DNA from: an uncultured Gammaproteobacteria bacterium | GTDB lineage: Bacteria > Pseudomonadota > Gammaproteobacteria > UBA6002 | Direction: 5' to 3' | Length of the DNA: 64,000 nt | NCBI GenBank assembly: GCA_963705725.1 | Contig: CAVPKM010000007.1 | Coordinates: forward strand, 32,001-96,000 | Shown: positions 34,014 through 64,000 of the stretch, one piece after another | Layout of the letters: each line of letters opens with the position of its first letter | Numbering within the stretch: position 1 is the stretch's first letter | Program-made: the position numbers and the translations under genes | The notes under the pieces: model-generated | Seen by the model: only the letters and a program-made list of their open reading frames with translations | Told to the model about the DNA's origin: nothing | Database searches by the model: none

Positions 34014-34042
34014 GCAATTAACTTTTAATGGAGGAATTTAAT

Positions 34043-37518: not shown

Positions 37519-38853
37519 ATGGGGTTTATCATGAAATTAAGCATACGGGATTCAAAAAGAAAAATAATCATTCTAAATGTCGAGCCTAGGATGAGCGTTA
37601 TTGATTTAAGAATTAAGTTGTATGAACTAAATGACCAAATTGATGAAATCATTTTATACCCTGACGATACCGTTGAAAATGGCATCACACTTGAAAATAA
37701 TCAAACTTTAGAAAACTATGCGATCAATGAAAATAGCTTAATCAAATTAGCTCCTCTCCTTGAAATTCCCAGTGAATTTTTTTGTCCCGTTTCTCTGTGT
37801 ATTTTCTTAAAGCCAGTTAAACTGCCTTGTGGCGCCACCATAGAATGTGAAGTCATCGAAAAGCATATCAAGCTGGCAGGGACTTGCCCTTTTACTCGAA
37901 AACCACTCACTACAACAGAATTGATCAAAGACACTATTCTGGAAGATCGAGTTAACAAGTTATTTGAGCAACATAAAAATAGTGCTGCTATTGAAGTATT
38001 AAATATAAAAAGATATCAATTAGAGGCGCCTGCCTTAAGTTTTCAAAATGACAGTCCGAGAGGACCGAGTGAGCCAAGTACAGATGATCAATTAGCGATG
38101 CATGCAGATCAGCCACCATCGAATGAAAATCCTCTAACTCAGGCACTAAGCGTTGTCAGAATGATACTTTCACTTGAACCAAATTTATTTGAATACGTAC
38201 AACCAGAGAACACAATAGCAACAACTGAAAATCAATTAAATGCTTGGCAAGCAGGAGCGCTAGAAAAGTTGCAACATCGCGGCTTAACTGAAGAAATGCT
38301 ACGAGCCTATAATCATAATGATCACAAATTTGATAATCATCATGCCTTTGCATTGGAAACGCTAGTTGAAAGCCGAGAGTTTTCCATCCAAGAAGCACTA
38401 GCTGAAATTGAAGGCTTGTCAGGTCATCAAGCAGAGGGTATTCGAAGGGGTTTAACTCGCCCTGAAGTTATCGATATGAATATTTGGCAGATAGAAACGC
38501 TAGTAAGCCTTAAAAGCTATGGCCTGACAGCAGAAATGCTAAGAGCTCATTTTTATAATGTTCAAGAATTTCATGATGGTCATTGCTACGCCTTGAAAAA
38601 TCTAGTTCAAACTCGAGAGTTTTCCGTCCAAGAAGCACTAGATGAAATTGAAGGCTTATCACCCTATCAAGTAGGGCGTATTCGAAACGGTTCAACTCGT
38701 GCTGAAGCAATCAATACTGGCGAAGCAGCAGCTAACGGTGGCCGTCACATGGCTTTGTTACCTTTTTTTAGCACTCTCCGACCTCGTACTGTGGAACGAC
38801 AGACAGGAAGTAATTACTCAATTAACGATGGGGCATCAAATGCATTCAAATAA
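37519..38853 (+). CDS. Ubiquitin-like domain + U-box + two internal repeats; putative effector E3 ligase
   Basis: N-terminus aligns by eye to ubiquitin; U-box IPSEFFCPVS..KPV.LPCG....IEKH...TCPFTRKPL. Confidence 0.8.
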   Translation: MGFIMKLSIRDSKRKIIILNVEPRMSVIDLRIKLYELNDQIDEIILYPDDTVENGITLENNQTLENYAINENSLIKLAPLLEIPSEFFCPVSLCIFLKPVKLPCGATIECEVIEKHIKLAGTCPFTRKPLTTTELIKDTILEDRVNKLFEQHKNSAAIEVLNIKRYQLEAPALSFQNDSPRGPSEPSTDDQLAMHADQPPSNENPLTQALSVVRMILSLEPNLFEYVQPENTIATTENQLNAWQAGALEKLQHRGLTEEMLRAYNHNDHKFDNHHAFALETLVESREFSIQEALAEIEGLSGHQAEGIRRGLTRPEVIDMNIWQIETLVSLKSYGLTAEMLRAHFYNVQEFHDGHCYALKNLVQTREFSVQEALDEIEGLSPYQVGRIRNGSTRAEAINTGEAAANGGRHMALLPFFSTLRPRTVERQTGSNYSINDGASNAFK

Positions 38854-39450: not shown

Positions 39451-40392
39451 TTATGGGCCAGGGTGGCGCTCAGGAAATGTATTCATCACATCCTCTATAA
39501 TATCACTAATGGAGGGTTCTATCTCCTGTAAAGCATTTAATATTTGAGGGAGAAGCTGAGCGAGTTCTTCTGGAGAGGTTGTTAGGTAAAATATATCATC
39601 CTCATCTCCAGGAAATAAACCGATGCCAGGAAGATCGGCCGTTATTCCATGATTTTGAAGGGCTTCTTTAAATAGCCGATTGTGCGCTATTGCAGATCTG
39701 AAGGTGTCTCCTTCCATATAAGTAGCCGTGATCCATAAGGTACAGTTTTCGGGATTATTTTTTATTTGCATTTCACTTATATAACTTGGATTACTATTAT
39801 AATAAATTTTTTTTTCTCCTAAATAATGCCAAAGTTCCCAGGTACCCCAATTAATCCGCTGAAGACGAGAGGCTGGTTGCTGCGCTGGAGCCTCAAAAAA
39901 CTGAGGTGCTTGAGGTTGTTGCGCTTGAAACGCCTGCGCACCCACTGCTTGTTGCATAGCTAAAACATCGTCTGGTGTTGGCGCAGCAGGCTGATTGGTC
40001 TGGGTTGAGGTGGGGCTAGGAGCCTCATAAGCATATCTTTCTTTATTAACAGCTTGCATCAAATCCTTGTAATCAGGGCGGTCTTTATTTTCGTTCAAAA
40101 ATTTGTTAATTTCGTTTTCTATTTCGTTTTTCACTGCAACCGCTGTAGCGATATTATTCACTTGTATTAATGTCATCGGCTGTCGATTAAAGGGATTTCT
40201 TCCAGTAATTCTGACAGATTCTTGTACAAAATGCCGTTCAACAGGGTCGGAGGATCCTGCAATAATGATAGGATCGGTTAAGATTGCGCCAGTAAGTTCT
40301 GAAATATACCCAAGTCTACTCATGTGCTTTTTAAATTCTTCGAGCAGCTCGTCTTTATTTTTAATAGGGTTTTCTTCAAATTTATGCTCCAT
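39451..40392 (-). CDS. Divergent U-box protein; putative effector
   Basis: ISELTGAILTDPIII...VERHFV...RNPFNRQPM; shares a linker motif with 37519..38853. Confidence 0.65.
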   Translation of the reverse strand: MEHKFEENPIKNKDELLEEFKKHMSRLGYISELTGAILTDPIIIAGSSDPVERHFVQESVRITGRNPFNRQPMTLIQVNNIATAVAVKNEIENEINKFLNENKDRPDYKDLMQAVNKERYAYEAPSPTSTQTNQPAAPTPDDVLAMQQAVGAQAFQAQQPQAPQFFEAPAQQPASRLQRINWGTWELWHYLGEKKIYYNSNPSYISEMQIKNNPENCTLWITATYMEGDTFRSAIAHNRLFKEALQNHGITADLPGIGLFPGDEDDIFYLTTSPEELAQLLPQILNALQEIEPSISDIIEDVMNTFPERHPGP

Positions 40393-43455: not shown

Positions 43456-44706
43456 TTATTGTCGAATCAATCGGAAATTCAAGCCAGGTAAATTGACTTT
43501 CTCTGTCGTTCGATAAGGATTAATATCTAAGCCACCGCGTCTTGTATAACGTCCATAAACCGTGAGTTTTTCTGGGCTGCAACGATTCATGATATCCATA
43601 AAAATGCGCTCAATGCATTGCTCATGAAATTCATTATGATTACGAAAAGAAACAAGATACTGAAGCAAACCTTCTCGATTGATTTGTTTTCCAGTATATG
43701 CAATTTGCACACTACCCCAGTCTGGTTGATTTGTGACTAAGCAATTAGACTTTAATAAGTCAGAATACAAAATTTCTTCTACCGTGTTATCTTTTACCGA
43801 GAGATAATTGGGTTCAACAAGATAGACGGAGCAAGTCACATCTAGGTCATCAATACACTCGCCTTTTGGCGCTGATTGAATTGTAGCAAGCGTTTTTTCT
43901 TTTAAAGATAGCAGTCTTACCTGAACCTCTCCATTTACACGGGAGCTCAAATCACGTTCGACAGTCAACCTAACTTCTTCGCTGTTGGTAAACTGTGTGT
44001 TATTGAACGAATTAAAATAAAGTTTCAATGATTTTGACTCAATTAAATTGTCTGTTGCACAATCTAAATTAATGTTAGCAATCGCAACAATGGGTTTGCC
44101 TTTTTTATTGAGCCATGACACTTCATAATGATTCCAACAATCAAAACCATAAAAAGGAAGATTTTGGGGGTCAACGCCAATTTCTTTCCGTTTGGACTCC
44201 CTTGGAATTGCAAATAACCGTTCTGGATTATAATGCAAATCATAGCTGGATGACTGACCTAATTCAGATTGTCTAAGACCAGCTTGATATCGTTTTTCTA
44301 ATGTTTCATTCATACGCTGACTCTCCAAAATATTGATAATTTGTAATGAACTATACCAGTTCACAAGTACTCCTGCCTTAATCTGATTGGCAATATAGAT
44401 CGTAAGCCTTGCAGCCTCATGGATACAATGTGCTTTCTCCTTCAAAGCTTCCGCCTGAAGGTGCATAGAAGGCAACACCTCAAACTCAGGCCGTTCTAAA
44501 ATTTTTTTAATGGAATCTAATGAAAACCCTAGGAATTTTAAAGTGGCCACTTGTTGTAATCGGATTACATCCTCATCTGAGTACAAGCGATAACCTGCAT
44601 CAGTTCGAAAAGAGGGTTTTAACAAACCAATCTCATCGTAGTATTGCAACGAACGAATACTTAATGCCGTCATTTGACTGATATCTTTAATTTTATGGTA
44701 TTTCAT
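43456..44706 (-). CDS. queF: Fusion: MerR-family HTH + bimodular QueF (preQ0 reductase)
   Basis: IRSLQYYDEIGLLKP..RTDAGYRLY; ESKSLKLYFNS, KSNCLVTNQPDW, EFHEQC, TRRGGLDINP. Confidence 0.9.
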   Translation of the reverse strand: MKYHKIKDISQMTALSIRSLQYYDEIGLLKPSFRTDAGYRLYSDEDVIRLQQVATLKFLGFSLDSIKKILERPEFEVLPSMHLQAEALKEKAHCIHEAARLTIYIANQIKAGVLVNWYSSLQIINILESQRMNETLEKRYQAGLRQSELGQSSSYDLHYNPERLFAIPRESKRKEIGVDPQNLPFYGFDCWNHYEVSWLNKKGKPIVAIANINLDCATDNLIESKSLKLYFNSFNNTQFTNSEEVRLTVERDLSSRVNGEVQVRLLSLKEKTLATIQSAPKGECIDDLDVTCSVYLVEPNYLSVKDNTVEEILYSDLLKSNCLVTNQPDWGSVQIAYTGKQINREGLLQYLVSFRNHNEFHEQCIERIFMDIMNRCSPEKLTVYGRYTRRGGLDINPYRTTEKVNLPGLNFRLIRQ

Positions 44707-44723
44707 TTTGACTCCTGAATTGG

Positions 44724-44754
44724 AGTTTATGCTATCACGCAAGGTGAAGGTCAA
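44724..44754 (-). promoter_or_regulatory. MerR-type promoter with 19-bp spacer and dyad
   Basis: Minus strand TTGACC-ttcaccttgcgtgatagca(19)-TAAACT; TCAC-N5-GTGA palindrome in the spacer. Confidence 0.8.
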
Positions 44755-44854
44755 GAAAAATTATGAGGAAAAAGCCAGGTCAGTGTTTTTCACTGGGTAG
44801 TGTTAGGTAAATAATTTATGGTACAGTCGTTACGAGAAAGCAAAATAAGCTAAC

Positions 44855-45341
44855 CTTAATTTTTCACATTGCTTTTTTTAAAAAATCTGCCACTATAGGA
44901 CACACGAGCGGGAAATTCCCGCCCGTGCGGAACCACTAAGGTGTTAGCGCGCCTAAGGGGTTCTAGCCACAAATTAACCTAACAACACGAGGTTAACTCA
45001 TGACTAACACTAGAATATCACCTATTTGCGCAAACGCGCAAAGTCCTTTTTCTTATTCCTCCCATTTTTTGCCAAACACAAAAGCAAATTCTACCCGTAA
45101 ACCCTCGGTTAGCCGTGAGCATTTGTGGCCGGCGACAGTTTGCTTAGTTTGGCAAGAGGGGTGGATGTTCTCAAGTAACAGGACAATATTCTAAGCAGAG
45201 GGGGATTGATGGCGGGTTGGCTTACTTCCCGCCTTCAATTTTTGAACACAAACCATTGTGCTCAACCTCTCTGCTGTGTTCAGACCTGTAGATAGGTTTT
45301 GCACTGCATTAAGGAAAATCTATGCAGTCGCCTTCAATTCG
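44855..45341 (+). repeat. Structured leader element, copy 1 (~490 bp, contains 64-codon ORF 45000..45194)
   Basis: Colinear with 51458-51946; hairpins retained despite substitutions. Confidence 0.88.
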
Positions 45342-46174
45342 AAGCGAAATTTCCAATCTTGAGGAAGTGCTATAGATGAAGAGGAAATCATTCAGTTATT
45401 CAAGAATCAATCAACAATTGATCCCTATACCAATAAAGTTGTAAAAGCGAAATCTGAATGTGAAGGTCGTCCCATAACACTGTTTGGTTTTCCTAACAGA
45501 GAGCGTGCGGCAAGAATTGAACTTAAATGGCACAAAAAAGTCATCCATAAGTTTTTTAGAGTGGGTGAGCCCTTAGCAGAAGGAAAACAATCAACACCAT
45601 TTTTAATATGGTTAACAACTGTATTGAACAAAAGCATCAAAACCCCATTCCTATCCAAGGCTACTCTAGGCGCAGCTTTATTATTGCGAGTCTAAAATTC
45701 TTACGCATTATGGCGATATGCCAGAATTAATTTTCATGTTGGGGATGACTAAAATTAAACTACTCGAGTAAATTCCGTGACGCAAAGGCAGAAGGGGATT
45801 TAAAATGAGGGCTCCCAATTATGGACATTGCATATGGTGAGGATGTATTAATAGGCTTTCGAACTTTATCATGCCTAAAAGGGATAGAAATCCAGATAAC
45901 CCGCAAGTGCGCTATAAAAAATTTCTTGAGATTTTTAAAGAACGATTAGCTACGATGGAGCCTTTTAGCCATTTGGATTTGAACAAATATGGAAATATCC
46001 TGATTGGTGTAGAGCCGGAGGCAAATGAATCTGATGAAAAAACACAAAACAACCTTCATCTGTTAAGGAGCATTATAATCAATCAGGTTTTTCTAACCTG
46101 ATAAGATTTGAATTTGTGAGCCATTATATTTCCTTCTAACTAGATAGTTGTGAATAGTGAAAAACATGAACGAA

Positions 46175-46637
46175 TTTTTTGCTACTCTCCTGAAATTTGT
46201 CGCGCGATTTATACTACGAATGCAGTTGAATCCGTGAATATGAGTCTTCGGAAGGTCATTAAAAGTAAGCGCGTTTTTCCTTCGGATGATGCCGCTTTGA
46301 AGCAGCTATATTTAGCGTTTAAAAATATTTCAAAAAAATGGACAATGCCAATACGAAATTGGGGTGATGCCATGAATCGTTTTATGATTCTGTTCGAAGG
46401 CAGGCTAAAAGGGGCGATTTAGTTTAAGAACTGATTTAAAATTTTGTGCCTTCGATCGCCTGTGGATATATGCACAAACTGACTCGTTGCACTCGTCAGT
46501 ATTGCGCACATACCCACAGGCACAATAATTTTATTTGTTTATTTAAAAAATTTTTGTTATTTTAATTTCGCTATCTGGAATTCGGTAGCAAAAAATCTGC
46601 TGACTCAACCTGCTTACACAAAATTATTTACGCTACC
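46175..46637 (+). mobile_element. IS256 3' remnant including right IR
   Basis: Near-identical to ~35550-36013. Confidence 0.92.
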
Positions 46638-46669
46638 AATATTATTTCTATAAAAATTAAAGAGTTATC

Positions 46670-48154
46670 TTGATATTAAAATTTAAAATCTTTTTTTTTG
46701 TATTTTTAGCCACAATTTTTTGTAATTGTTCTGCAAATACAGCTGAAAGTAAAACAAAACATTACCTATTAAAGCCTAGTGGTGAATATTGCGTATCTTT
46801 TGAAGATATACATCTATTAAATACCACTCTTTGTCCTGACCCAAATTTTAATGGTAAGAATGATGCGGACTTTAGCTCAGGGAATAAAGTGCACTGCCAT
46901 GAAATCATGGTCAGGATATATTATCCTACTAGAGAGTTAAATCAAAAAGCACCTTACAATTCTCCTTTTATTAAACAGTTGCAGGATAATATTAAAAACT
47001 CTAAGGATGGCTCTATAAATTTGCAACAGTCCTTAAATGAAATTTATAGTAATACATCTGAAAAAAAATCGGCTATTGATAATAAAGCCTTCCCGATTAT
47101 TTTTTTTAGCCCGGGTTTAGGTTGTTCTGTACAAACTTACGAGAACATTATTACTGAGCTAGTCAGTCATGGATATATTGTGGCTGGAGTGAATACCCCC
47201 TTTTTAAGCGGTAGTATTGAACTCCCTAATCATTATATTGTTAAACCAGTCATACCCCGTTCTACGGATGAGATTGAGAAGTCTTTTATCAATATACAAA
47301 GTAAGGATCTGGAGTTTTGTATTAATAATATTAAAAATTGGAAACATTTACGTGCATATAAAAATATGGACTTTATACACGTAGGCGCTTTTGGACATTC
47401 CATTGGCGGTAGAATTGTAGCAAATTTAACTCATTCGCAATCAAATAAGCTACAAGCCGCAGCTGCTATGGATACGGCAATCGATCCTTCAGGAGATTCG
47501 TTGAGAGGATTTGCTATCCCTTTTATGCATGAAATTGCGGCAAATAAGCTCTCAATTTCCTCATCTCCCTTAAGCTTTGTGCTAAATCAAAATGGCTTTT
47601 TGGTTCATATCTCACCTAGCCCTAATGATAAAAATTACAGTTACCACATGAATTTCTCAGATTTTTCCACCTTACAATATCAGCCAGCTGTTAAGGTTTT
47701 TCTTAATTCTTTGAAACAAAATTCGGAGAAGGATTTTAATATCAAAATTCATCAAAATTCAGTCAATGATGAAATATCACTTGGTTTGGATGAGGAGACT
47801 TATCTTTTAGCTAAAAGAAATAGCAAATGGGAATTAACATACTACAAAGGAAGAAAGAAAATAATAGATCTTGATATTATGAATATTAAAGGACTCAGTG
47901 CGCTGCTAGCCCCTTTAAACAAGCCTAAAGAGTTGAACGCTGCAAGATTAAAACAAGTTAAATTCTCTTTAACTTGTTTTAGAAAAAACATGAATGAACT
48001 AGTGGGTATAGGCAATGGCTGGGAGCTAACAAAATCTATTAATACCCATTTGATAGCTTTTTTTGATACTTTTTTAAAAGGGCAAGATAATATATCATTC
48101 AAGCAGTGTCAGCCCTTAACAACGAATGTTTATATTAAATGTAACCTAAGGTGA
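46670..48154 (+). CDS. Secreted alpha/beta hydrolase (PAF-acetylhydrolase-like)
   Basis: Signal peptide, FPIIFFSPGLG, ELVSHGYIV, GHSIG nucleophile elbow, HMNFSD. Confidence 0.82.
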   Translation: MILKFKIFFFVFLATIFCNCSANTAESKTKHYLLKPSGEYCVSFEDIHLLNTTLCPDPNFNGKNDADFSSGNKVHCHEIMVRIYYPTRELNQKAPYNSPFIKQLQDNIKNSKDGSINLQQSLNEIYSNTSEKKSAIDNKAFPIIFFSPGLGCSVQTYENIITELVSHGYIVAGVNTPFLSGSIELPNHYIVKPVIPRSTDEIEKSFINIQSKDLEFCINNIKNWKHLRAYKNMDFIHVGAFGHSIGGRIVANLTHSQSNKLQAAAAMDTAIDPSGDSLRGFAIPFMHEIAANKLSISSSPLSFVLNQNGFLVHISPSPNDKNYSYHMNFSDFSTLQYQPAVKVFLNSLKQNSEKDFNIKIHQNSVNDEISLGLDEETYLLAKRNSKWELTYYKGRKKIIDLDIMNIKGLSALLAPLNKPKELNAARLKQVKFSLTCFRKNMNELVGIGNGWELTKSINTHLIAFFDTFLKGQDNISFKQCQPLTTNVYIKCNLR

Positions 48155-48285
48155 ATTAGATTACACTAACCAAAAAATTTATGATGATTGTCAAGAGATC
48201 AGTCATTTGTATCTGGGAAACAAATTTTAAAAGTATCTGAAATGTAATTGATATGATAGAAATATCTGTTACTACTCTTTGGGAT

Positions 48286-49107
48286 TTACAGTTTAGCTAC
48301 AAGATTCTGTCCGGCTGATTTTAATTCTTGATCAGTTTTTTCTCTTTGAATGACTTCCCCTGATTCTGCCCAGAATTGATGATGCCAGGTATCATATATA
48401 TTCCAATCTCCCTTTGAAAAAGATTCATTTTCTTGAGTAAGCATTAACCAAGCTATAAATTTAGCGGCTATTTGAGGTGGCAATAATTCACTTCGATTAA
48501 AAAACCCTTGAAAAATATTAAGGGAAGGTAATTGATTTTTATTGGCAAGGCGTAGATTTTTTTGAATGTCTGTTTCAATAATGCCAGGCATGACGGATCC
48601 AAAGACTACATTTTGAGCTTGAAATTCCGCATTGAAATACTCTTTAAGCATAAGTAAGGCAGATTTGGTTATTCCATAAGCAGCCATACCTGGCAGTGGA
48701 TGGTGAGCAAGTCCAGATGAAATATGCAAGACACGACCGCCATCTTCTAAGTGGGGAAGTAATAACTGTGTTAAACGCAGTGGTGCTTTTACATGCAATT
48801 CATAATGCAAATCCAAGATGCTGTTATCCATTACCCGAAGAGGAGAGGGTATGGCAACCCCTGCATTATGAATCAAAAATATTCCTTTCTCGGTTATAGA
48901 ATTTTTAATTTTTTGTCTATCCTGATCTTGAGTCATATCACCATCAATAATTTCAATTAAATGAGGGTACAATGCCTGTAAACTTTTTAATAATCGTTCA
49001 TTGCGCGCAACTGCGATCACTCTATGCCCCATGGAAGCAAATTTGATGCTGAGAGCTCTTCCGATTCCTCTGCTTGCACCTGTGATGATAACTGTTTTAT
49101 TTTTCAT
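48286..49107 (-). CDS. Short-chain dehydrogenase/reductase
   Basis: TGASRGIG, HNAG, ISSG, YGITK. Confidence 0.9.
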   Translation of the reverse strand: MKNKTVIITGASRGIGRALSIKFASMGHRVIAVARNERLLKSLQALYPHLIEIIDGDMTQDQDRQKIKNSITEKGIFLIHNAGVAIPSPLRVMDNSILDLHYELHVKAPLRLTQLLLPHLEDGGRVLHISSGLAHHPLPGMAAYGITKSALLMLKEYFNAEFQAQNVVFGSVMPGIIETDIQKNLRLANKNQLPSLNIFQGFFNRSELLPPQIAAKFIAWLMLTQENESFSKGDWNIYDTWHHQFWAESGEVIQREKTDQELKSAGQNLVAKL

Positions 49108-49442
49108 TATGATTTCTCAAGTTATTCAATAAATTCTTTCATAATTTTGGTGTTCTTGAAGTTATGCTATGATGACCAAAGTAAGAGATTCCCTTTTCAA
49201 ATTCAAGAACAAGATTATCCTGATCTATTCAGGTTGAAACTTATTATTCTGATGACGATAATCTATTGCTAATTGCTACCTATGAGCAAAAAACTGTTGA
49301 AACGATAGTCTGTAATAGGCTGCTGAACCGTTCTATTTGGGAAAAATGGATTTCATGAAATTTCGAGGGATAACTTACCTATATGATGAAAAAAATAATT
49401 TTATGATAGATTGGATTAGTTTTTATAAGAGAGGGCTAGAGA

Positions 49443-50100
49443 ATGAATAAAGAATATTGGCATAGAAAATGGCAATTTAAAGAAATTGGTTTTAATCAAT
49501 TACAACCAAATAAACTTATGCAACAATATTTTTTCTTTTTTAAAACTGGTTCCTGGCAATTCTATTTTTATTCCCTTGTGTGGCCAAAGTCTTGATATGA
49601 TTTGGCTTGCAGAGCAAGGTTACCAAGTCATTGGCGTTGAGCTTAGTCAGATTGCTTGTGATGCTTTTTTTGAGGATAATAAAATTCCTGCCAAAATAAC
49701 GAAGCTCGAAGACTTTATTCTCTATTCTAGTGGTAACATTCGGATTTTTTGTGGTGATTTTTTTAGGATCAATCAAGCAATTCTCGGTAAAATTGATGGA
49801 ATCTATGATAGGGCAGCTTTGATTGCTTTGCCCACAAAAGTTCGCCAATCTTACTCTGAGCATTTAATTAAACTAATGACAGAAAAAACGGTCCTATTTT
49901 TAATTACTATGATGTACGACCAAGAAGAGTTGCAGGGGCCGCCATTCTCTGTTGATCAGGAAGAGATTATTGCGCTGTATGCCGCTCATTTTGATATTAA
50001 TCAGTTGTACAGTAAATCATTTGAAATACCCGCATATCTTCAGGATAAAGGATTACATTACGCTACGGAGCAAGTCTATTTGTTAACTCGTGGAAAATAG
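49443..50100 (+). CDS. tpm: Thiopurine S-methyltransferase, +1 frameshift in T runs at ~49528-49541
   Basis: MNKEYWHRKW..IGFNQ joins FIPLCGQSLDM, YDRAALIALP, GPPFSV. Confidence 0.88.
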
Positions 50101-50410
50101 CGGCAATTCTCAAAATGGATATTCAGAAAAAACTTTAAAGGCGAAAATGGTGAATTTACTATCCAGGTACCGAGAGATCGAAATGCAGATTTTTCTCCCC
50201 AGATTGTTGCTAAGAACCCAACGCGTTTTGAAGGGTTTGATGACAAAATCATAGCCTTTATGCGAGAGGGATGACGACACGTGATATACAGGGGCAATTG
50301 CAAGAGCTCTATGGCGTAGAAGTCTCTGCTACTTTCATTCCAATGTGACCAACGAAATCATTGAGGAAGTGAAAACTTGGCAGTGTCGTCCCTTGGATAA
50401 ACTTTATCCC
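50096..50410 (+). mobile_element. Internal IS256 transposase fragment with frameshifts
   Basis: Matches ~34755-35072 of the intact copy. Confidence 0.9.
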
Positions 50411-50730
50411 AGGCCTATTTTTAAAGCCATGAACCCGATACTGAGACAAACTTTTTTACTTCATCCTGAAGCAAGTAAAGTTCTGCTTAAATTAGTTAAA
50501 GAGCACAATTTCCCCTTAATAAACTTAATTCCGGAAGAGGAACGTCTGATTTGCTATTTGCAGGAACCTGCAGATCTTTTGTTTTATCCAAAACTTGCTT
50601 AGGAGTTGGTTAATTTGATTTGTCATTATCCAGTGATAACTTTTTCGCCTTAAGATGAGATAAATTTATTGCTAGAAAAAACTATTCGTTAATGAGCAGA
50701 ATTGGAATATCGCAATAGGATGTAAAAACA

Positions 50731-50808
50731 TTTAAAGAAAATATCTCTCTCAGAAAATCACTGTATTTTCTTGATCCCGTTGGACACAAGCTTGAAATCC
50801 AGAAATGA
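50731..50808 (+). pseudogene. Remnant of a FosA/FosB-like VOC gene
   Basis: FKENISLRKSLYFLDPVGHKLEIQ resembles the Fos motif S.YF.DPDGHKLE. Confidence 0.5.
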
Positions 50809-51007
50809 GAATAGCTGTTAAAAAAATCGGATGCTGGTCATTAGAAAAATGTAGAGTGGTTTGTATGAGCCCCAAAAATCATTGGTATTAGTGGCAATAT
50901 GGGTGCTGGAAAAACAACTCTCGCCCACACTCTTCAACAAGATTTACAATCAATTCGGAGTTAAAATCAGCGCAAAGTTTCCTATGCATCATGTCTTTAT
51001 TTCCAAA

Positions 51008-51406
51008 TCAATCAGATACCATAGATGGATGATGAGTAAATTCAACCTCATTGCCTGAGGGATCAAGGATACTAAAAGCTTTTGTTCCAATGCCAAACGT
51101 CTTAGGTTCATCCAGAATTATAACAGGGTATTGTTTGATATATTGATACCAGGCATCCACATCCTGTGGGCAGCTAATGGCAAAACCAAAGTGCTCGAGT
51201 CTTTGAGGTTGAGCAAAATTTGCAGTGTCACCTTGATGCAAAGAAATGTTATCTTCGCTGGAGGTTAAATAGGCATAATCGTTTGTTTCATGCTCGAGCG
51301 TCATTCCAATGATATTTGTATAAAAATCAATGCATTCCTGTAGATTATTGACGCGCAGTGCAATGTGTCTAAGCCCTCTCATTTTTGGCTTTGTATTTGC
51401 ATTCAT
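51008..51406 (-). CDS. VOC/glyoxalase-family protein
   Basis: LRHIALRV, LEHFGF, LDPSGNEVEF. Confidence 0.88.
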   Translation of the reverse strand: MNANTKPKMRGLRHIALRVNNLQECIDFYTNIIGMTLEHETNDYAYLTSSEDNISLHQGDTANFAQPQRLEHFGFAISCPQDVDAWYQYIKQYPVIILDEPKTFGIGTKAFSILDPSGNEVEFTHHPSMVSD

Positions 51407-51457
51407 TGCTTAATCCTTTCTCTTGAGTAATGAGAAGGCAGGAAAAAATAATCTCCT

Positions 51458-51946
51458 CTTAATTTTTCAGATTGCTTTTTTTAAAAAATCTGCCACTATA
51501 AACACACGGACGGGGAAACCCCCGCCCGTGCGGAACCACGAAGGTGTTAGAGCACCCAAGGGTTCTAGCCACAAACTAACCTAACAACACGAGGTTAACT
51601 CATGACTAGCATTAGGATATCACCTACTTGCGCCAACACGCAAAGTCCTTTTTCTTATTCCTCCCATTTTTTGCCCAATACAAAAGCCAATTGCACCCGT
51701 AAACCCTCGGTTAGCCGTGAGCAGTTGTGGCCGGAAGCAATTTGCTTGGTTCGGCAAGCGGGAGGGAGATTCCCGAGAATTAGGACAATATTCTAAGCAG
51801 AGGGGGTTGATGGCGGGCTGAATTGTCACCCGCCTTCAATTTTGAACACAACAACTTGTGCTCAACCTCTCTGCTGTGTCCCAACCCTTTAGATAGGTTG
51901 TGCACTGCGTATAAGGAAAATCTTTATGCAGTCACCTGCCATTCAA
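51458..51946 (+). repeat. Structured leader element, copy 2 (contains 64-codon ORF 51602..51796)
   Basis: Colinear with 44855-45341; ends within the start of ORF 51926. Confidence 0.88.
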
Positions 51947-52357
51947 TTTGATGCTGCCCCTTGGCCGCTTAAGCCTAATGAAATTATGCAGCTCTCATCA
52001 TTCATTGCCATTGTGCTGCGCCATTTTCGCCAATGTGCTTCTTCCTGTGAAGCGAGCTATTTATCTCAGTTACAAGTCATTTCAGACTGTCATTACTTAG
52101 TTCATTTAGCACAGCAGGAAGATAGCCTCTTTTCCAGGCCTCTCTCGCTTGAGCAGATTTCAAGCGTTGCGCTTAATCTGGCAGAAGCCATCAATACCCT
52201 TAGCGATAAAATCCGGTTAATGGATTCTCCCTGGTTTTATGCGGATTTTTACTCAAGCGTCAATTATCTCTTAAGCGATAAGTTTGGTTACTTAAGTCAA
52301 GACTTCACGCTCATCAAGCAACTGCGAAAAAAAATTAATCGGGTTAAAGGAGAATAG
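51926..52357 (+). CDS. Hypothetical helical protein, first gene of CDPS operon
   Basis: RBS taagga; 2-nt gap to the CDPS gene. Confidence 0.65.
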   Translation: MQSPAIQFDAAPWPLKPNEIMQLSSFIAIVLRHFRQCASSCEASYLSQLQVISDCHYLVHLAQQEDSLFSRPLSLEQISSVALNLAEAINTLSDKIRLMDSPWFYADFYSSVNYLLSDKFGYLSQDFTLIKQLRKKINRVKGE

Positions 52358-52359
52358 GC

Positions 52360-53079
52360 ATGGAAACAACCCATACAGAGATCTGTCGTCCCCTTAAAGC
52401 AAGCTTTGCAGGAGCCAAAGCTTTTCGCCACCATTTCAGCCGGGCAACTGCCCAGCTCACCATCAGCATTGGCCAAGCGGTGCACGAAGGAGAGCGCTTA
52501 GCCGCTACCTTAGCGCTCATCAATCGCTCCTTTGCCAGTTGTAAGGTGATGATCGATGATAGTATTCAATGGTATACCTTAGCGATTAACGCGCCGGAAC
52601 AATCCTCCTCCCTCTTACTCCAAAACGCAATTGCAGCAGGGGATCACTACCTGAATACCACCTCAGCACTCTTTCAGTCATCACTCACCATTCCTTATGA
52701 AATTGTCCGCTGGAAAGATTGGCACGGCCTGCCCAGTTGGCAAACGGCGGTGGCCTTGATGCATCAAGACTATGAGGAAAATACGCTCCTTCGCAGCGAA
52801 ATTCAAAAAAACATCACGACCTTTCTAGATCGCTATGAGAAGCGGGGAACGGATAAGACCTATGATCGATCTCGCGCCTGGCGACTCTGCCTTCATTACT
52901 TATTAGAAGAATGTGCGGTGATGCGTACCTTTTGGGTGGAACTGGGTTGTCATTATGAGGTGTATCCGAGTGGTCGCAATGAAGCGATGCGCGCCACCTA
53001 TGAGCATTATATTCAGCCTTATCATCCGCATTTATTAACATCGATTGCGCTGCGTTTTCATCGACTCGGCAGGGAATAA
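52360..53079 (+). CDS. tRNA-dependent cyclodipeptide synthase (XYP subfamily)
   Basis: ISIGQAVHEG (catalytic Ser), DSIQ, IVRWKDW, YLLEEC, YEVYP. Confidence 0.82.
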   Translation: METTHTEICRPLKASFAGAKAFRHHFSRATAQLTISIGQAVHEGERLAATLALINRSFASCKVMIDDSIQWYTLAINAPEQSSSLLLQNAIAAGDHYLNTTSALFQSSLTIPYEIVRWKDWHGLPSWQTAVALMHQDYEENTLLRSEIQKNITTFLDRYEKRGTDKTYDRSRAWRLCLHYLLEECAVMRTFWVELGCHYEVYPSGRNEAMRATYEHYIQPYHPHLLTSIALRFHRLGRE

Positions 53080-53090
53080 AAGGAGTGGCG

Positions 53091-54722
53091 ATGAACCCCA
53101 CGAAAAGAGTAGCAGCAGGCAAGCAAGCGGTGAATTGTCAACTGGTGCTAGAAAGTTTACTGCGACATTTACCCGGTCATGTCTATTGGAAAAATACAGA
53201 TGGGATTTATCTTGGTTGTAATGATCGTCAAGCACAAAGTTTAGGTCTGACTTTAGGCCGTGAAGTAATCGGTAAAACCGATTTTGAGCTCCCTTGGCAG
53301 GCAGAATTAGCAGCGCATTTTTGGGAAAATGATCGCCAAGTGTTAGTGAGCGGCTTATCAAAAACGGTAGAAGAAATGGCGGTGATAGATGGGAAGGCAG
53401 CCATGGTGTGGAGCATCAAGGTTCCCTTAAAAACCGATCAAGGTCAAATGGTCGGGGTGCTGGGGATTTCCATTGATATCACGGCGCAAAAAAAGGCAGA
53501 AGCCAAATTAATCCAAGCTAAGGAGAATGTGGAAGCGGCCTATTTGACTAAAACCCGATTTTTAGAAAACCTGCGTCATGATATTCGCACCCCGATCAGC
53601 GGGATGCGTGGCTGCATCCAGTTGTTGCAAGACTGCTTAGAGGAAAAAAATCCAGAAATAAAGCAAGCCAAAGAGTATTTGCAGGATGTAGATAGTTCGA
53701 GTAGCGAGCTCTTAAGCTTATTAAATAAGGTGACGATGAGCACTCAAGCCATGGATGGGGTGTCTGCGCTTAAAAAGCAGCGCGTTAATCTAAAGTGTCA
53801 ACTGCTTTCTCTATTAAAGCTCAATCAAGCACGAGCAAAAGAAAAAGGACTGAAGTTAGCGCTGAAATATGATGAATCGATTCCCTTATTAATTGGGGAT
53901 GGCGAGCGTATTGAGCAAATTCTGGTAGAGTTAATGAGCAATGCCTTAAATTTTACGGATAAGGGCGGCATTACCCTCACCGCTCAGCTTGCAAAGCAAG
54001 CAGGAGAGCGGGTCATTATTAAAATGATGGTTCAAGATACCGGAATTGGCATGACCCTTGAAAAGCAGCAAGCCCTATTTACGCGCTTACCACATTTATC
54101 TGCTGCTTATTCAGGCTTATCACGTGGGATGGGCCTAGGATTAGCCTTAATCAAACAAATCATCGATGAACTGGAGGGAGAGATTTATGTCGACAGTTGT
54201 CCAAAAAAAGGCACGACTTATACCTGTATCTTGCCGCTACAAGTTGCATTATTAAATGAGCAGGAACTGCAGCTGAATAAAAAAGCAGGCAATACGATTT
54301 CGCTCACTATGGCTGCAAAAGCACAGCCATTTTCTTCCCCAAAGGCGAGTGCAATTCGGGTATTGTTAGTGGAAGATGACCTGATCGCCCGGAAAGTGAG
54401 CGCGGTCTTGCTCACCAAGCTTGGATGTCAGGTCAGCCTAGCTGAAACGGTGGCTTCTGCTCTTGAAAAAATTAAATCGGAAAGTTATGAATTAGTTTTT
54501 ATGGACATTGGGTTACCAGATGGCAGTGGGATAGAGGTAGCAAAAGTAGCGAGGCGAAATAAGGCCAGTCAAAATCAAGCCACACCCATTATTGCGGTGT
54601 CGGCCCATGTTGATGAGGCAGGCAAAGCCGCTTGTCATCTTGCGGGGATGGATATCGTGCTTGCTAAGCCCTTATCGGAGGAAAAGGTGCGAGCTATATT
54701 GGCGCTTTTTGTTCGGAAATGA
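53091..54722 (+). CDS. Soluble hybrid histidine kinase PAS-HisKA-HATPase-REC
   Basis: PGHVYWK..G.YLGCN..GKTDFELPW; HDIRTP; NALNFT, DTGIG, GMGLGL; VEDD, MDIGLPD, KP; no TM segment. Confidence 0.92.
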   Translation: MNPTKRVAAGKQAVNCQLVLESLLRHLPGHVYWKNTDGIYLGCNDRQAQSLGLTLGREVIGKTDFELPWQAELAAHFWENDRQVLVSGLSKTVEEMAVIDGKAAMVWSIKVPLKTDQGQMVGVLGISIDITAQKKAEAKLIQAKENVEAAYLTKTRFLENLRHDIRTPISGMRGCIQLLQDCLEEKNPEIKQAKEYLQDVDSSSSELLSLLNKVTMSTQAMDGVSALKKQRVNLKCQLLSLLKLNQARAKEKGLKLALKYDESIPLLIGDGERIEQILVELMSNALNFTDKGGITLTAQLAKQAGERVIIKMMVQDTGIGMTLEKQQALFTRLPHLSAAYSGLSRGMGLGLALIKQIIDELEGEIYVDSCPKKGTTYTCILPLQVALLNEQELQLNKKAGNTISLTMAAKAQPFSSPKASAIRVLLVEDDLIARKVSAVLLTKLGCQVSLAETVASALEKIKSESYELVFMDIGLPDGSGIEVAKVARRNKASQNQATPIIAVSAHVDEAGKAACHLAGMDIVLAKPLSEEKVRAILALFVRK

Positions 54723-54933: not shown

Positions 54934-57900
54934 ATGCAATACAAGCAGCAAGCGTATCCCTTTAGTTTAATTTCAAGTAAGGGATTAGGAAAAACCTACT
55001 CGTCCTTCGATAAAATTGGACCGCTTCTGCCGATGAAAGGATTTGGCGCGGCAGGATTAACATTTTATCCGAATGTGGCAATAGGGAACTTATTTTTTCA
55101 AGACCATATGCTAAAAATTGAAGAGCAGGGCGGGATCCTTGAGCTTGGGTTTATTTACAATAGTCAAGCAGCAAGCGTGGATCCGGTTTGGCAGTTTGCG
55201 CATCCTAAATTTTATTTGTTATCGCGTTATTCTCAGCAAGTAGTGCTTTCTGAAGCAGATGGCTATCGTACAATCTATACGTTAGATCTCAAAAGCGGTT
55301 TTTTTTATAGTGAGACAGGCTCAAGAAAGGGAATCGCTTGGCTTTATTATCAGGAAGCCAATCAGCAATGGGTGCATTATCGACCTTTTGATCAAGTGAC
55401 GGAATATTTTAATGCGGAAGGATTGCTAGTAAAGCGTGAAACGAAAGCCGGTAACATCACAATCTATTATTATGATGCGTATTTACGCTTAAAAGAAATC
55501 ATTGGTGCAAGTGGTAACCGGTATAAATTTCACTATCAAGAAAATACACTTTCTCTTTATTTAGTGACGCTTGATTCCTCCGAGCAATTGTTGCAATCCT
55601 ATTTGTTTGATCTTGAGGGAAGACTTACCTTAAGCCAAACGCCGGATGGGTATCAAACCCAGTATTTTTACAGTGAAGTGTCTGCTCGGCAATTATTGGC
55701 GGTGAAACAATCTGACCAAACGATGTTAGGTTTTGGTTATGATCATTCCAATCGATTAGTGGAATGTTGTTTAGGCGATGCCTCCACGTTTACTTTGCAG
55801 TATCCAAATGAAACACAGCCGGATTTTTTGTTCAGCGATCCTGTTGGTGGCACGACCTCACTCAAGCTAAATGACCAGGTAGCTATCATTGAAATTGCGC
55901 GATCTCAAGGTATCGGTGCTGATTTTAAGGAAAAATTGATTACCGCCTATCATTACAATGCGCTGACACAACTGACGCTTATCCTTCATCCTAACCAGGG
56001 CCAGGAAGGCTTAAGTTATACCGATCGCTTTGGGTTGGTGCGCCTGAACGAAGGGCCAAATGGGCAAATGGTCGAGCAGGTCTATGAAGAAGAAGCGATG
56101 GCTGTTCGTTTGGTTGCTGACATTCAGTATGAAACGGTTCATGGCAGAAAAAATACGCTTTTAGCGACTTATTATGTTTATGACACCGATTTTAATCATC
56201 AATATACTTTTTTACGATTTAAGATTAACCCCTTAGGCAACGTGACGGAATATCGTCCGGATCGATGTGGCAATATTGCATCTGAACGAACCTATTTGGG
56301 CGGGATTTTTGATCGAAATCAGCGAGATCCCCGCCAGGCGCCGACTTTATCAGAGATAAAAGCTTGGGTGAGCCTGCAAGATGCCGCTAAGGTGAATTTA
56401 GTTGCCTATGAATATAATCTGAGAGGGCAATGGCAACATTACTGTCAATACGCTGAGGTCGATCAAGCAGGAAAGGGGAAACTCGATGAAGCCATGGGTC
56501 AGATTTATACCTTTCGAACGCTGTATGGGGAACCTTTTTTTAAGCAGGTGAAACAAAATAATATTCAGGCAGCAGTGACCCGGCAGCGCTTTGATGCGCT
56601 AGAGCGCCTGCTGAGTAGGACCGATGCCCTTAATCAAACCACGACGGATGACTATTTTGATGCTAAAGGCCAGGTAAAAATCATTTATCCGAATGGGAAA
56701 ATTGAGATTCGGCAACAAGATGCGAGAGGAAATGGCGTTTCCCTGCAAGAGATCGTAGCGGAACAAGAGAGACTCACGCAGTATCGGCGAGATGCAAACG
56801 GGCGGGTGGTATTAACGACCAGGCCCGATGGGGAGTTTCTTTATACTTTTTTTGATCATCAAGATCGCCTCAAGTTTTGTGTCACAGCGCTTGGAATCGT
56901 CACCCAGCAGGTTTATGCGGTTAAAAACCGTTTTGTTTCGACCACCGTTTATGCCAAGTGCATTGATACTCGGCAATTATGGCCGAGTGATCCGCCACCA
57001 CCTGGCTCCCTGCCGCAAGTTGATCGCTTGATCGCCTTATTGCCGGGTATTGCGGATGAGAGTATTGATCAAACACATTATACCTTTTTTGATTTTTCTG
57101 ATCGCCCGATTTATGAGGTGGATGAGGAAGGGTATGTCACGCAATTTCAGTACAATGCGCGCAATCAAAAGCGGGTTGAGATTGCGTATGCCAACCCTTT
57201 AGAGGATGAGCAGTTAGCGGAGTTAAAAGCAGGAAAGACACTTGCTCTTCCCATTGATTTCAATCAAGACCGAGTAAAACGGGATTTCTATGATAATAGT
57301 GGCGCGCTAATTGGTGAGCAGAATAGCGCAGGTTATGTGACTGAGTATGTGTTAGATGGGGCAGGAAATACGAAAGAATGCATTCGATATCACACCCCGA
57401 TGCCGCTTGATTTAGCACTACGCGATTTTGATCAAGTGCGGCCAAATGCTGCTTTACTCGATGCGCATACCTATTATTTTCGCAATAGCAAAGGAGCGCT
57501 GGTCGGACAATTCGATCCCGCAGATAGATGGGGAGAATATTATTATACGGCGCATCACGCTTACCCCAATGGCTTAATCCAAAAAAGTATTCGATATAGC
57601 ACTAAGGTGAGTTTTCCTCTGCTTCTGCCCCCTCCAGCCAATCCCGAAGCCGATGAAATCACTCTCTATCGCTATGATCTATTAGGTAGGCTTTTAGAGA
57701 CCGTTTTTCCGAATCAGAAAAAAGACCGTCTTCAATATAATGTGTCGGGTAACGTGATTTCAGCTAAATCTCAGGATTTACACTTTCCTGACTTGATGGA
57801 TCCTGATCATCAGCGAGCCAGGCATGCGCATTACGATGCTTGGGGCCAAAAAGTTAAGGAAACGAATGAGTTTGATGGGGAAATCTTCCATCATTATGAC

Positions 57901-63900: not shown

Positions 63901-64000
63901 CCACTTATTCTTTTACGGTATCCAAGGGCAGTCAACTTTATCCCAGTAGTCCTTTGCCGGCACCTGAACCTATTCATGTGTTGCCGAGTCAGCATTTTGA
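54934..64000 (+). CDS. Giant YD/RHS-repeat protein (>3000 aa), one frameshift at ~59522, runs off right edge
   Basis: YD repeats throughout; after ORF 54934..59538, frame 3 from 59523 reads RCYDLARRRIKTIHYATP and was open at the points checked (62.3, 62.8, 63.3-64.0 kb). Confidence 0.85.

Follow-up and report, generated by a model that had tools for sequence, protein, structure and literature searches.

A structured RNA leader with an upstream open reading frame and a predicted antisense RNA heads paralogous signalling cassettes in an uncultured gammaproteobacterial genus

A window of 64,000 nucleotides from an uncultured gammaproteobacterium (positions 32,001 to 96,000 of contig CAVPKM010000007.1, assembly GCA_963705725.1) contains two copies of a repeat of about 490 bp that is made of RNA hairpins arranged around a short upstream open reading frame (uORF). 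The repeat is tentatively read here, at a little less than an even chance, as the control region of a set of paralogous signalling cassettes that works as a countertranscript-gated leader. The reading is built on helices of the sense RNA, on a junction placed at the uORF stop codon, on a helix that forms in the opposite strand only, on the divergence of hairpin loops among paralogues, and on a uORF that stays open while its peptide drifts.

The repeat and its copies

The two window copies, copy 1 (~44857-45340) and copy 2 (~51458-51946), are 86% identical over 487/489 bases. Both carry a promoter-like block, TTGCTT...CACTAT, upstream of a series of hairpins. The first of these, P1, reads gggaaattccc vs ggggaaacccc between the two copies and is followed by the composite hairpin P2/P2a (gaacc..ggtg-loop-cgcc/cacc..ggttc) and by a ttaacct..aggttaa hairpin that encloses the sequence GAGG. 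A 64-codon ORF follows in both (45000-45194 and 51602-51796), with 16 of 64 residues differing, and directly 3' of its TAA lies the junction gcagagg...cctctctgc, then another hairpin. A stem, actgcat..aagga..atgcagt, spans the ATG of the first downstream, or cargo, gene, whose product begins MQSP. The homology of copy 1 stops about six codons into this gene, and tblastn found no remnants of the three cargo proteins elsewhere in the window. A preliminary description of the window, made from its letters alone, had placed the two copies at these positions and listed the same elements in the same order, all of which were recovered; its proposal that copy 1 has lost its cargo agrees with the end of the homology and with the tblastn result.

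The genome of the window (G000) holds a third copy on another contig (G000:C10:2207-2691, minus strand), which is 94% identical to copy 2. There the kinase gene of the cassette is retained, with 99% identity over 429 aa, and an internal deletion joins the start of the gene for the 143-aa protein to the end of the gene for the 239-aa protein. The features of copies 2 and 1 are as follows; SL denotes a stem-loop of the predicted antisense RNA and RBS a ribosome-binding site.

Copy 2
51472..51499, plus strand: promoter-like block (TTGCTT, 16-nt spacer including TG, CACTAT), conserved across lineages; putative promoter
51505..51530, plus strand: P1, the 5'-terminal leader hairpin, from folds and compensatory pairs; its complement is the predicted antisense terminator hairpin SL3
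51532..51566, plus strand: P2 with the inner hairpin P2a and its hypervariable loop, from compensatory changes
51565..51610, minus strand: antisense-specific hairpin SL1 over CCACAA, the RBS hairpin and the uORF start codon, from pairing counts and local minimum free energy (MFE)
51577..51597, plus strand: P3 hairpin (taacct..aggtta) enclosing the GAGG RBS of the uORF, from compensatory changes
51497..51608, minus strand: predicted antisense RNA of ~110 nt (SL1, SL2, SL3, U-rich tail), with ends placed by the -10 element and the terminator-like hairpin
51614..51643, minus strand: predicted antisense promoter (TTGCGT at 51643-51638, 18-nt spacer ending in TG at 51622-51621, TATCCT at 51619-51614)
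51602..51796, plus strand: uORF, 64 codons, with hairpin P4 (51628-51643) and the conserved CCTTTTTCTT
51796..51874, plus strand: three-way junction J, with closing stem J-P1 (GCAGAGGGG/CCTCTCTGC), J-P2 and J-P3; MFE -42.5 kcal/mol
51875..51946, plus strand: distal hairpins and stem over the start of the first cargo gene, kept only among the three copies of this genome

Copy 1
44869..44896, plus strand: promoter-like block of the sense leader, from the alignment
44899..45057, plus strand: 5' domain (P1, P2/P2a, CCACAA, P3, uORF start, P4); covariance model 138.8 bits, E 2e-29
44896..45006, minus strand: predicted antisense RNA; TG and -10 hexamer TGATATTCT at 45020-45012; local hairpin -18.7 kcal/mol antisense vs -6.6 kcal/mol sense
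45000..45194, plus strand: uORF, 64 codons
45195..45274, plus strand: junction J; MFE -43.4 kcal/mol
45275..45340, plus strand: distal hairpins and first ~6 codons of the lost cargo gene, where homology ends

The distal part (51875..51946) is replaced by unrelated sequence in other lineages.

An IS256/Mutator transposase is present in the window as a full gene (34566-35798) and as two fragments (46150-46422 and 50345-50602) that lie between the leader copies. These are a likely cause of the rearrangement that took the cargo of copy 1.

Family and distribution

At the gathering score, Rfam models matched only a tRNA in the window and nothing on the element; at E <= 10 over 44500-52500 there was again no match on the element, and a match to mir-320 at 51405-51453 was attributed to chance (18.9 bits against a gathering score of 55.5). 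The element therefore matches the earlier proposal of an unannotated structured leader. By blastn it had no match among the PLSDB plasmids, and among 61 genomes it had relatives only in one genome of the same genus (G002), a further match of 32 nt having the look of chance. A pattern derived from the alignment, CCACAAA-N14-30-CTCATG-N36-CAAAGNCCTTT, was scanned over 185,579 species with one genome each and gave 16 loci, 15 of which fall in one metagenome-assembled genome record and one in another. Two matches of the pattern in metagenome contigs were rejected as chance, one GC-rich and beside an argininosuccinate-lyase-like gene (L038), the other repeat-rich and with an ORF of four codons (L039).

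A covariance model was built on the first 160 nt of the leader. Applied to five genomes of the genus (G000 and the further genomes G001-G004), it found three copies in G000, 25 in G002 (21 of them at E <= 2e-18), and one strong match in G001, whereas G004 gave two weak matches and G003, a genome 77% complete, gave none; among the collected loci it gave 26 matches with E values from 1e-19 to 1e-34. After removal of duplicates, the analysed set comprises 25 complete copies in six lineages, three from this genome and 22 from related uncultured gammaproteobacterial genomes. In addition, one decayed copy (L067) and one truncated after P2 (L068) were seen. In the copies examined, the element lies immediately upstream of an operon and always in the same orientation, so that the listing of the genes after the other copies bears out the preliminary claim that the element precedes cargo operons.

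Structure of the sense leader

The promoter-like block is recognizable across lineages as TTGCTT/TTGATT ... TGn[G/C]A[T/C][A/T][G/A]T. The sense helices that follow it are backed by compensatory changes. RNAalifold on 19 copies returned P1, P2, P2a, P3 (with the GAGG RBS) and P4 (codons 10-15 of the uORF), in all 23 pairs, 15 of them with compensatory changes. In an alignment of 26 sequences that was fitted to the covariance model, and hence leans towards it, 94.4% of cells pair and 16/23 pairs have changed on both sides; none of 500 shuffles reached the observed values, and slid controls paired at 24-42%. Compensatory changes affect three of the four pairs of P2 and three of four in P2a, and both-side changes affect five of the six pairs of P3, some of the latter being due to register shifts. 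The stem-preserving changes noticed in the two window copies thus extend to P1-P4 throughout the family. P4 followed by CCTTTTTCTT was flagged as terminator-like in three copies. A long-range pairing, CCUUUUUCU/AGAAAAAGG, was noticed by eye and appeared in one RNAalifold run.

The junction J is a sense-specific three-way junction that is anchored at the uORF stop codon. In MFE folds of the individual sequences, which are no independent test of covariation, a single architecture was obtained in 24/24 non-decayed copies, with energies of -30 to -44 kcal/mol: J-P1, 9-12 bp in length, closes the junction and encloses the long hairpin J-P2, to which a further hairpin, J-P3, is added in some copies. 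The start of J-P1 falls between 3 and 0 nt ahead of the base that follows the stop codon. Across lineages, a C-G pair of J-P1 is replaced by U-A in five copies, and J-P2 occurs in lineage-specific forms related by compensating changes (GGCGGG/CCCGCC, GGCAGGAUCC/GGAUCCUGC and GCGGAGUGGG/CCCAUUCCGC). The strand preference of J is seen in its G.U pairs (59/533 pairs) and in a mean MFE of -39.7 kcal/mol for the sense strand vs -33.1 kcal/mol for the complement. A MAFFT alignment misaligned the 3' side of J, and RNAalifold on that alignment gave only six poor pairs. Followed by U3-U6, J-P2 resembles a leaky terminator, and together with its T-run it was flagged as terminator-like in one lineage (L026).

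A predicted antisense RNA

The 5' part of the leader probably encodes an antisense RNA of about 110 nt, as judged from signals and pairing on the minus strand. In a gap-free alignment of this strand, 25/25 copies carry CTTTGYG, a spacer ending in TG, one base, and TAnnnT (the last three forming TGnTAnnnT). The arrangement is that of an extended -10 promoter whose -35 element has TTG, and its end lies 9 nt short of the complement of the uORF start codon. At the same offset, relatives of the leader that head free-standing small ORFs (described below) carry TAAGCT, TAGGCT, TAAGAT, TACGCT or TAGACT in 10 of 11 cases; the eleventh has TATTAT two bases closer. In copy 2, a transcript that starts 7 nt after the -10 element would begin at the first base of SL1. 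The minus strand of copy 2 from 51622 to 51497 folds into three stem-loops at -55.4 kcal/mol (z -6.5), compared with -38.5 kcal/mol (z -4.0) for the sense strand, and the P1 complement with its U-rich tail was flagged as terminator-like on the minus strand in copy 2 (51532-51503) and L026.

An antisense-only helix covers the start codon and CCACAA, giving the putative antisense transcript a conserved structure of its own. In this helix, SL1, UUUGUGG pairs via G.U with CCAUGAG, the complement of the start-codon region, and lengthens the P3 complement to a hairpin of 13-18 bp. The invariance of the motif CCACAA, which is single-stranded in the sense RNA, would be explained by this pairing on the antisense strand. 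The segment from CCACAA to AUG is more stable as antisense RNA in 24/25 leaders and 11/12 relatives, with a mean MFE of -14.1 vs -7.7 kcal/mol and mean z values, antisense vs sense, of -3.0 vs -1.7 in leaders and -3.3 vs -0.9 in relatives. Over 34 distinct sequences (alignment A9), the 11-pair helix of SL1 is paired in 355/368 cells on the antisense strand and in 246/368 on the sense strand; for its outer seven pairs the counts are 230/236 and 134/236. One U.G pair is invariant in 34/34 sequences, no shuffle of 500 equalled the observed pairing, and slid controls gave 33-48%.

Hypervariable loops

The loops of the leader are hypervariable, in a pattern like that expected where specificity is set by a few loop nucleotides. 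Nine paralogues from G002 are 95-97% identical over more than 1.8 kb. Among these, a 20-nt window over P2a has a nucleotide diversity of 0.32, P1 has 0.10-0.12 and codons 2-8 of the uORF have 0.14; the values for the promoter and for most of the uORF are 0.00-0.02 and 0.00-0.04, and those of the genes are mostly 0.01-0.06. The mean pairwise distance of the P3 loop is 0.52 and that of CUAACCACAAAU is 0.00; register shifts distort some other segments of the same per-segment comparison. The P2a hairpin is distinct in 25/26 copies, the only identical pair coming from two different records, and the P3 loop in 23/26. The free-standing relatives show the same focus: two of them with a dS of 0.08 (L076 and L078) differ at 7/110 positions of their 5' untranslated regions (5'UTRs), five in the P2a loop and two in the P3 loop. 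A cis-encoded antisense RNA is complementary to its own target whatever the loop, and therefore fast divergence of the loops is expected from selection against cross-talk. A kissing interaction between the P2a and P3 loops of one molecule was considered and dropped, as no complementarity was found by eye in 11 copies.

The upstream open reading frame

The leader ORF is kept as an ORF and not as a peptide. The uORF is open in 25/25 copies, always from the same ATG and with a length of 59, 64, 65, 74 or 75 codons, and it ends directly at J in 22 copies and 2-4 nt short of it in L034, L064 and the decayed L024. Stop codons are absent from frame 1 and number 0-7 and 4-6 in frames 2 and 3; the chance that a shuffled uORF stays open is 0.008-0.04 per sequence. 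The ratio of nonsynonymous to synonymous change (dN/dS) is 0.35-1.22 in 16 pairs, with 0.9-1.2 reached among close paralogues. At the same loci, the downstream kinase, carbamoyltransferase and methyltransferase genes have dN/dS values of 0.03-0.24 (18 pairs, 12 of them with unsaturated dS). The high uORF ratio arises mainly because dS is low, at 0.19-0.21 vs 0.65-0.73 in neighbouring genes, and the low dS in turn implies that the synonymous sites are constrained. Absolute dN is 0.09-0.18 in pairs of the L022 group vs 0.07-0.12 in neighbouring genes. Over 32 ungapped codons, the variable columns are spread 17/17/20 over the three codon positions. The preliminary description had noted equal length and many amino-acid changes in the uORFs of the two window copies and had given weight to translation and not to sequence; the open frames, the ends anchored to RNA structure and the dN/dS values all agree with a frame that is kept while its peptide drifts. 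In the uORF peptides there were neither runs of regulatory codons nor a conserved C-terminal arrest motif, and Pfam and NCBIfam had no match.

The distance from the uORF stop to the first downstream start is 82-186 nt in cargo-bearing copies and 124-186 nt in most, which makes simple translational coupling unlikely. The uORF body has a C content of 0.21-0.30 vs a G content of 0.16-0.21 in most lineages and no skew in the L022 group.

Free-standing relatives and the origin of the uORF

The uORF appears to derive from a real small-protein gene, on the strength of profile comparison with a second group of ORFs. The weak covariance-model matches in G004 and G002 fall on the 5'UTRs of free-standing ORFs of 68-87 codons, and these 5'UTRs carry a P2-like hairpin, CUAACCACAA and an RBS hairpin. 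Four such ORFs were combined into a profile, which found 14 places in three of the five genus genomes; it found none in G000 and did not detect the uORFs at E <= 0.01 in the genus genomes. An hhalign comparison of the uORF peptides with the free-standing small proteins gave a probability of 86.7% (E 4.4e-6, 37 columns). The small protein is predicted to form a two-helix hairpin (predicted local distance difference test, pLDDT, 85.8), and its family numbers 21 proteins among 5.8 billion, all annotated as 'hypothetical'. A Foldseek search of the model against the PDB gave nothing at E <= 0.001, only generic helical hairpins; Pfam and NCBIfam had no match to the free-standing proteins, and tblastn of two of them against PLSDB found none.

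The modules with free-standing ORFs stand before a variety of genes. Plasmid replication initiators of two unrelated families lie directly 3' in three of them, PF10134 (E 6.7e-31) in L073 and PF04796 RepA (E 4.3e-31) in L078 and L080; others are followed by a ParE/HTH pair, an AAA_15 ATPase, a glyoxalase with a phosphotransferase, a YhgA-like transposase or a Schlafen/AlbA_2 protein. The kinship of uORF and small protein, together with the range of operons that these modules head, suggests that the leader is one branch of a portable 'first-gene' module.

Two of these surroundings are of interest in themselves. One contig of G002 (C53) has four small-ORF modules, three of them before initiators of two families (PF10134 and PF04796; L073 1501-2682, L078 440-1719), and has the appearance of a multi-replicon plasmid or of a plasmid-derived island. 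At L018 (16265-18036, minus strand), an AAA_15/AAA_21 ATPase gene and a gene for a 231-aa protein follow a small-ORF module in an order that recalls two-gene ATPase/nuclease defence systems.

Cargo genes and neighbouring genes

Copy 2 is followed by three cargo genes:

51926..52357, plus strand: cargo 1, 143-aa protein (MQSP...) of no known family
52360..53079, plus strand: cargo 2, cyclodipeptide synthase, 239 aa; residues 12-235 match PDB chain 5ocd_A at E 7.2e-55
53085..54722, plus strand: cargo 3, soluble hybrid histidine kinase with PAS_4, HisKA, HATPase_c and receiver domains (Pfam)

The 143-aa protein had no match in Pfam or NCBIfam, and a homologue of it (32% identity, E 1.6e-15) is encoded 3' of the leader in L042. 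The synthase matches TIGR04539 at E 1.1e-6, which is below the family cut-off, and homologues with 51-55% identity follow five other leaders. Kinases homologous to cargo 3 close the cassettes in other lineages, where the gene before the kinase encodes a carbamoyltransferase-like protein in nine copies, an S-adenosylmethionine (SAM) methyltransferase in six and the cyclodipeptide synthase homologue in five. Downstream of the leader of G001, a homologue of the 143-aa protein is encoded first and a receiver protein second; two copies, copy 1 and L024, have no cargo. The cyclodipeptide synthase gene directly precedes that of a cytoplasmic PAS hybrid kinase, and the two products may be the synthase and the sensor of a diketopiperazine signal; one literature search on cyclodipeptide synthases, histidine kinases and Legionella found no such pair.

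The genome with the largest number of leaders, G002, has at least 20 paralogous cassettes of an enzyme and a PAS hybrid kinase (loci L022-L037 and L062-L066). Some of its kinases are shortened, as in L030 (390 aa) and in L036, where the gene is split into parts of 460 and 140 aa.

Several other genes of the window deserve mention. Two very large RHS-repeat genes lie 3' of the kinase gene on the plus strand (54934-59538, 1534 aa; 59592-63998, more than 1469 aa and running off the window). The minus-strand gene at 43456-44754 encodes a 431-aa protein in which a MerR-type helix-turn-helix (HTH) domain (MerR_1) is joined to QueF_N and QueF (7-cyano-7-deazaguanine reductase), an unusual combination of a regulator with an enzyme. 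The eukaryote-like U-box is found in two window proteins (37519-38853, plus strand, E 3e-15; 39451-40392, minus strand, E 7.9e-5), which fits a host-associated lifestyle. A tandem-repeat protein of 151 aa (GHESLAEAGRKGAEERTHESRVEGGKKAAETR; 34028-34483, plus strand) matched no Pfam family above the cut-off.

Proposed mechanism and alternatives

As a countertranscript-gated leader, the element would work as follows. The sense promoter would drive a structured leader of ~450 nt composed of P1, P2/P2a, the single-stranded CUAGCCACAAA, P3 burying the RBS, the ORF and J. From the opposite strand, the extended -10 promoter within codons 5-15 of the ORF would produce the ~110-nt RNA with three stem-loops, of which SL1 would cover the start codon and RBS, SL2 would be the complement of P2, and SL3 would be the complement of P1 and act as terminator. 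This RNA would make contact with its own leader through the P2a and P3 loops and thereafter shut off the ORF at its RBS and start codon. As almost every paralogue has loops of its own, a cassette may respond to no antisense RNA but the one that it encodes. Where the ORF is translated nonetheless, the ribosomes would reach the foot of J and keep the leader productive, through the melting of J-P1 or through protection of the RNA against Rho or nucleases, and the cargo would be expressed; the anchoring of the uORF stop to J-P1 suggests that it is the terminating ribosome that melts J. The ORF peptide would be largely dispensable. Three points of this scheme are inferred: production of the antisense RNA, its repressive action, and the dependence of cargo expression on translation of the ORF. 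Of the RNA leader envisaged in the preliminary description, the structured leader, the open uORF and the position upstream of cargo have stood, and the unlocking of cargo by uORF translation stays conjectural; that description overlooked the antisense signs on the 5' half, the hypervariability of the loops, which goes beyond mere freedom to drift, and the apparent gene ancestry of the uORF.

A number of observations weigh against this mechanism. A simple sigma-70 scan flagged neither the sense nor the antisense promoter in any copy scanned, and the antisense -35 element matches only at TTG. The conserved TGnTAnnnT sits inside the ORF, where a constraint on the sense RNA or the peptide could explain it, and SL1 consists in part of the start codon, which is invariant anyway. 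The minus-strand terminator was not flagged in copy 1 and L023 (two of the four scanned were flagged), and its U-tract is poor in the largest lineage. G.U (21 cells) and A.C (23 cells) are equally common in P1-P4, so that these helices do not separate the strands, and the J-P2 loop varies too, though it lies outside the antisense overlap. Unlike in tap/repA or repY/repZ, the uORF stop adjoins J and not the RBS of the next gene. A Rho-loading site in the uORF is possible but weakly indicated, as the excess of C over G is only mild and not found in all lineages. Finally, the peptide motif PS..HE.LW is nearly invariant among uORFs, so that the product may still matter, and the free-standing ORFs evolve like real proteins, with dN/dS of 0.19-0.41 and codon-position differences in the order 3 > 1 > 2.

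One alternative is a purely sense cis-regulatory leader, a ribosome-dependent attenuator or a 5'UTR that senses a ligand or protein, in which P1 and P2 would do the sensing, P3 would gate initiation at the uORF, and the ribosome at J would set read-through past J-P2 or a Rho site, with no antisense RNA. The covariation lies in sense helices, J is sense-specific and anchored at the stop codon, the terminator-like flags on J-P2 in L026 and on P4 in three copies would have a ready role, and a uORF that stays open without strong constraint on its peptide is what such a leader would show. We nevertheless regard it as unlikely: the antisense-only pairing of CCACAA and the start-codon region in 34 sequences, the conserved TGnTAnnnT, and the divergence of the loops at 10 times the rate of synonymous sites, next to stems and single-stranded motifs that do not change, are all left unexplained, and the uORF lacks both the codon runs and the arrest motif noted above. 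It is likewise improbable that the ORF of 59-75 codons is a working small-protein gene for a helical hairpin, the first gene of its operon, with the RNA structures serving mRNA stability or its own translational control. The hhalign link to a family that evolves as proteins and has a predicted two-helix hairpin, the near-invariant PS..HE.LW, and an absolute dN close to that of the neighbours, dS being the low value, all favour it. The even spread of variable sites over codon positions and the dN/dS of 0.9-1.2 among close paralogues do not; moreover, the family peptide motif is mostly lost from the three copies of this genome, the small-protein profile misses the uORFs at E <= 0.01 in the genus genomes, and the stop stays at the foot of J while the length of the ORF varies. 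Two narrower roles for the uORF product were rejected, that of a partner in histidine phosphotransfer and that of the precursor of a peptide pheromone of the agr/comQXPA type, as there is no family match, the kinase has no membrane segment and the relatives occur without kinases. An RfaH ops site and a CsrA sponge were set aside for want of a convincing motif in a search made by eye only.

The inverted repeats could also be DNA operators at which dimeric regulators bind, such as the response regulator that partners the kinase; the element would then be mainly a complex promoter/operator region. Nearly perfect palindromes are formed by P4 (TTGYGC-N4-GCRCAA) and by P1, Watson-Crick covariation would keep a palindrome in DNA as well as a stem in RNA, and G.U and A.C are equally frequent in P1-P4. 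This is very unlikely, however, given that SL1 relies on invariant G.U pairs, which are meaningless in duplex DNA, that J has 59 G.U pairs and lies ~200 nt inside the transcript, and that the helices accept large changes in loop length, unlike the spacing of operator half-sites. Scarcely credible is a mobile element (the end of a transposon or a miniature inverted-repeat transposable element) or a functionless segmental duplication, which the multiple copies, the nearby IS256/Mutator fragments and the missing cargo of copy 1 might call to mind. The element has no terminal inverted repeats (one 12-nt inverted pair in copy 1 is not at the ends, and copy 2 has none), its orientation directly upstream of operons is constant, and it shows covariation and is conserved beyond the synonymous sites of adjacent genes.

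A broader form of the countertranscript-gated reading, which we consider doubtful, is that a plasmid-type copy-control switch, composed of a private antisense RNA and a leader ORF whose translated peptide is meaningless, was exapted in the chromosome, where it would gate more than 20 parallel small-molecule signalling circuits, with hypervariable kissing loops as addresses keeping the circuits orthogonal. Each circuit would comprise a cyclodipeptide synthase, a carbamoyltransferase-like enzyme or a methyltransferase together with a cytoplasmic PAS hybrid kinase.

Relation to known systems

The element is a new sequence family that resembles, in its organization, the CopA/tap system of plasmid R1, repY of IncB plasmids and the REx-C modules of Pseudomonas. 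In R1 (IncFII), CopA, an antisense RNA encoded in cis, acts with its stem-loops against the loops of the mRNA leader, CopT, and blocks a leader ORF, tap, whose translation, and not its peptide, is needed for repA, with incompatibility set by a few loop nucleotides (PMC5304414, citing Blomberg 1992). Replication control in the IncB/IncI-alpha plasmids follows the same logic, with RNAI (Inc RNA) as the antisense RNA, repY as the leader ORF and repZ as the controlled gene. The present leader resembles this arrangement, its antisense RNA being a predicted one. The differences are that no kinship with these systems was seen in sequence or Rfam, that the ORF here has 59-75 codons and a stop at a three-way junction more than 120 nt before the next gene, and that the 25 leaders precede enzyme or kinase genes and not an initiator; only the free-standing relatives precede rep genes.

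Other systems share single traits with the leader. In the type I toxin-antitoxin system hok/sok/mok, an antisense RNA blocks an upstream ORF, mok, that is coupled to the downstream gene, and the mRNA is highly folded with long-range pairings; here there is no small hydrophobic toxin, and enzymes and kinases lie downstream. What becomes of the downstream message in mgtL/mgtA, tnaC and pyrL depends on whether a short upstream ORF is translated. In the cbrX-cbrA pair, the small ORF cbrX is reported to be translationally coupled to a histidine-kinase gene (PMC6591292). The ORFs of these four systems are shorter, have sensing codons or arrest motifs, or overlap the next gene, and they are not known to come with a dedicated antisense RNA. 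Compared with attenuators of the trp/pyrBI type, the leader has the terminator-like P4 with a T-run and, in one lineage, J-P2 with a T-run, and it lacks conserved codon runs.

The REx-C modules of Pseudomonas plasmid replicons are described by Bardaji et al. 2017 (PMC5304414) as made of stem-loops, a putative antisense RNA and a leader peptide, and as exchangeable among non-homologous rep genes. The same study reports that REx-C incompatibility is altered by a few nucleotides in one stem-loop and, citing Blomberg 1992, that rep expression is set by translation of the leader ORF and not by its product (PMC5304414). Both families consist of portable units with stem-loops, a putative antisense RNA and a leader ORF that stand before non-homologous genes within one genus, and both show compensatory stem changes, specificity changes in one stem-loop and leader peptides that diverge while the RNA is conserved. 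The present family differs in sequence, in heading at least 25 signalling cassettes without a rep gene, and in its added 5' hairpin and post-ORF junction.

If the countertranscript-gated reading is true, a new RNA family comprising leader, antisense RNA and junction would join the short list of switches that combine a leader ORF with a countertranscript, and it would be the first such switch on signalling operons and not on replication, transfer or toxin genes. Were the exaptation reading to hold as well, paralogous two-component pathways would be insulated from one another by RNA, a task for which the solutions known so far lie at the protein interface. The countertranscript-gated reading would further supply a natural case of many near-identical paralogous circuits in one genome that are separated by a few loop nucleotides, and with it a useful design principle. 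The locus would also show a small-protein gene under antisense control decaying into a pure 'translate-me' leader. As for the cargo, its cyclodipeptide synthase and cytoplasmic PAS kinase point to a so far unexplored class of synthase-sensor pairs in gammaproteobacteria of intracellular lifestyle.

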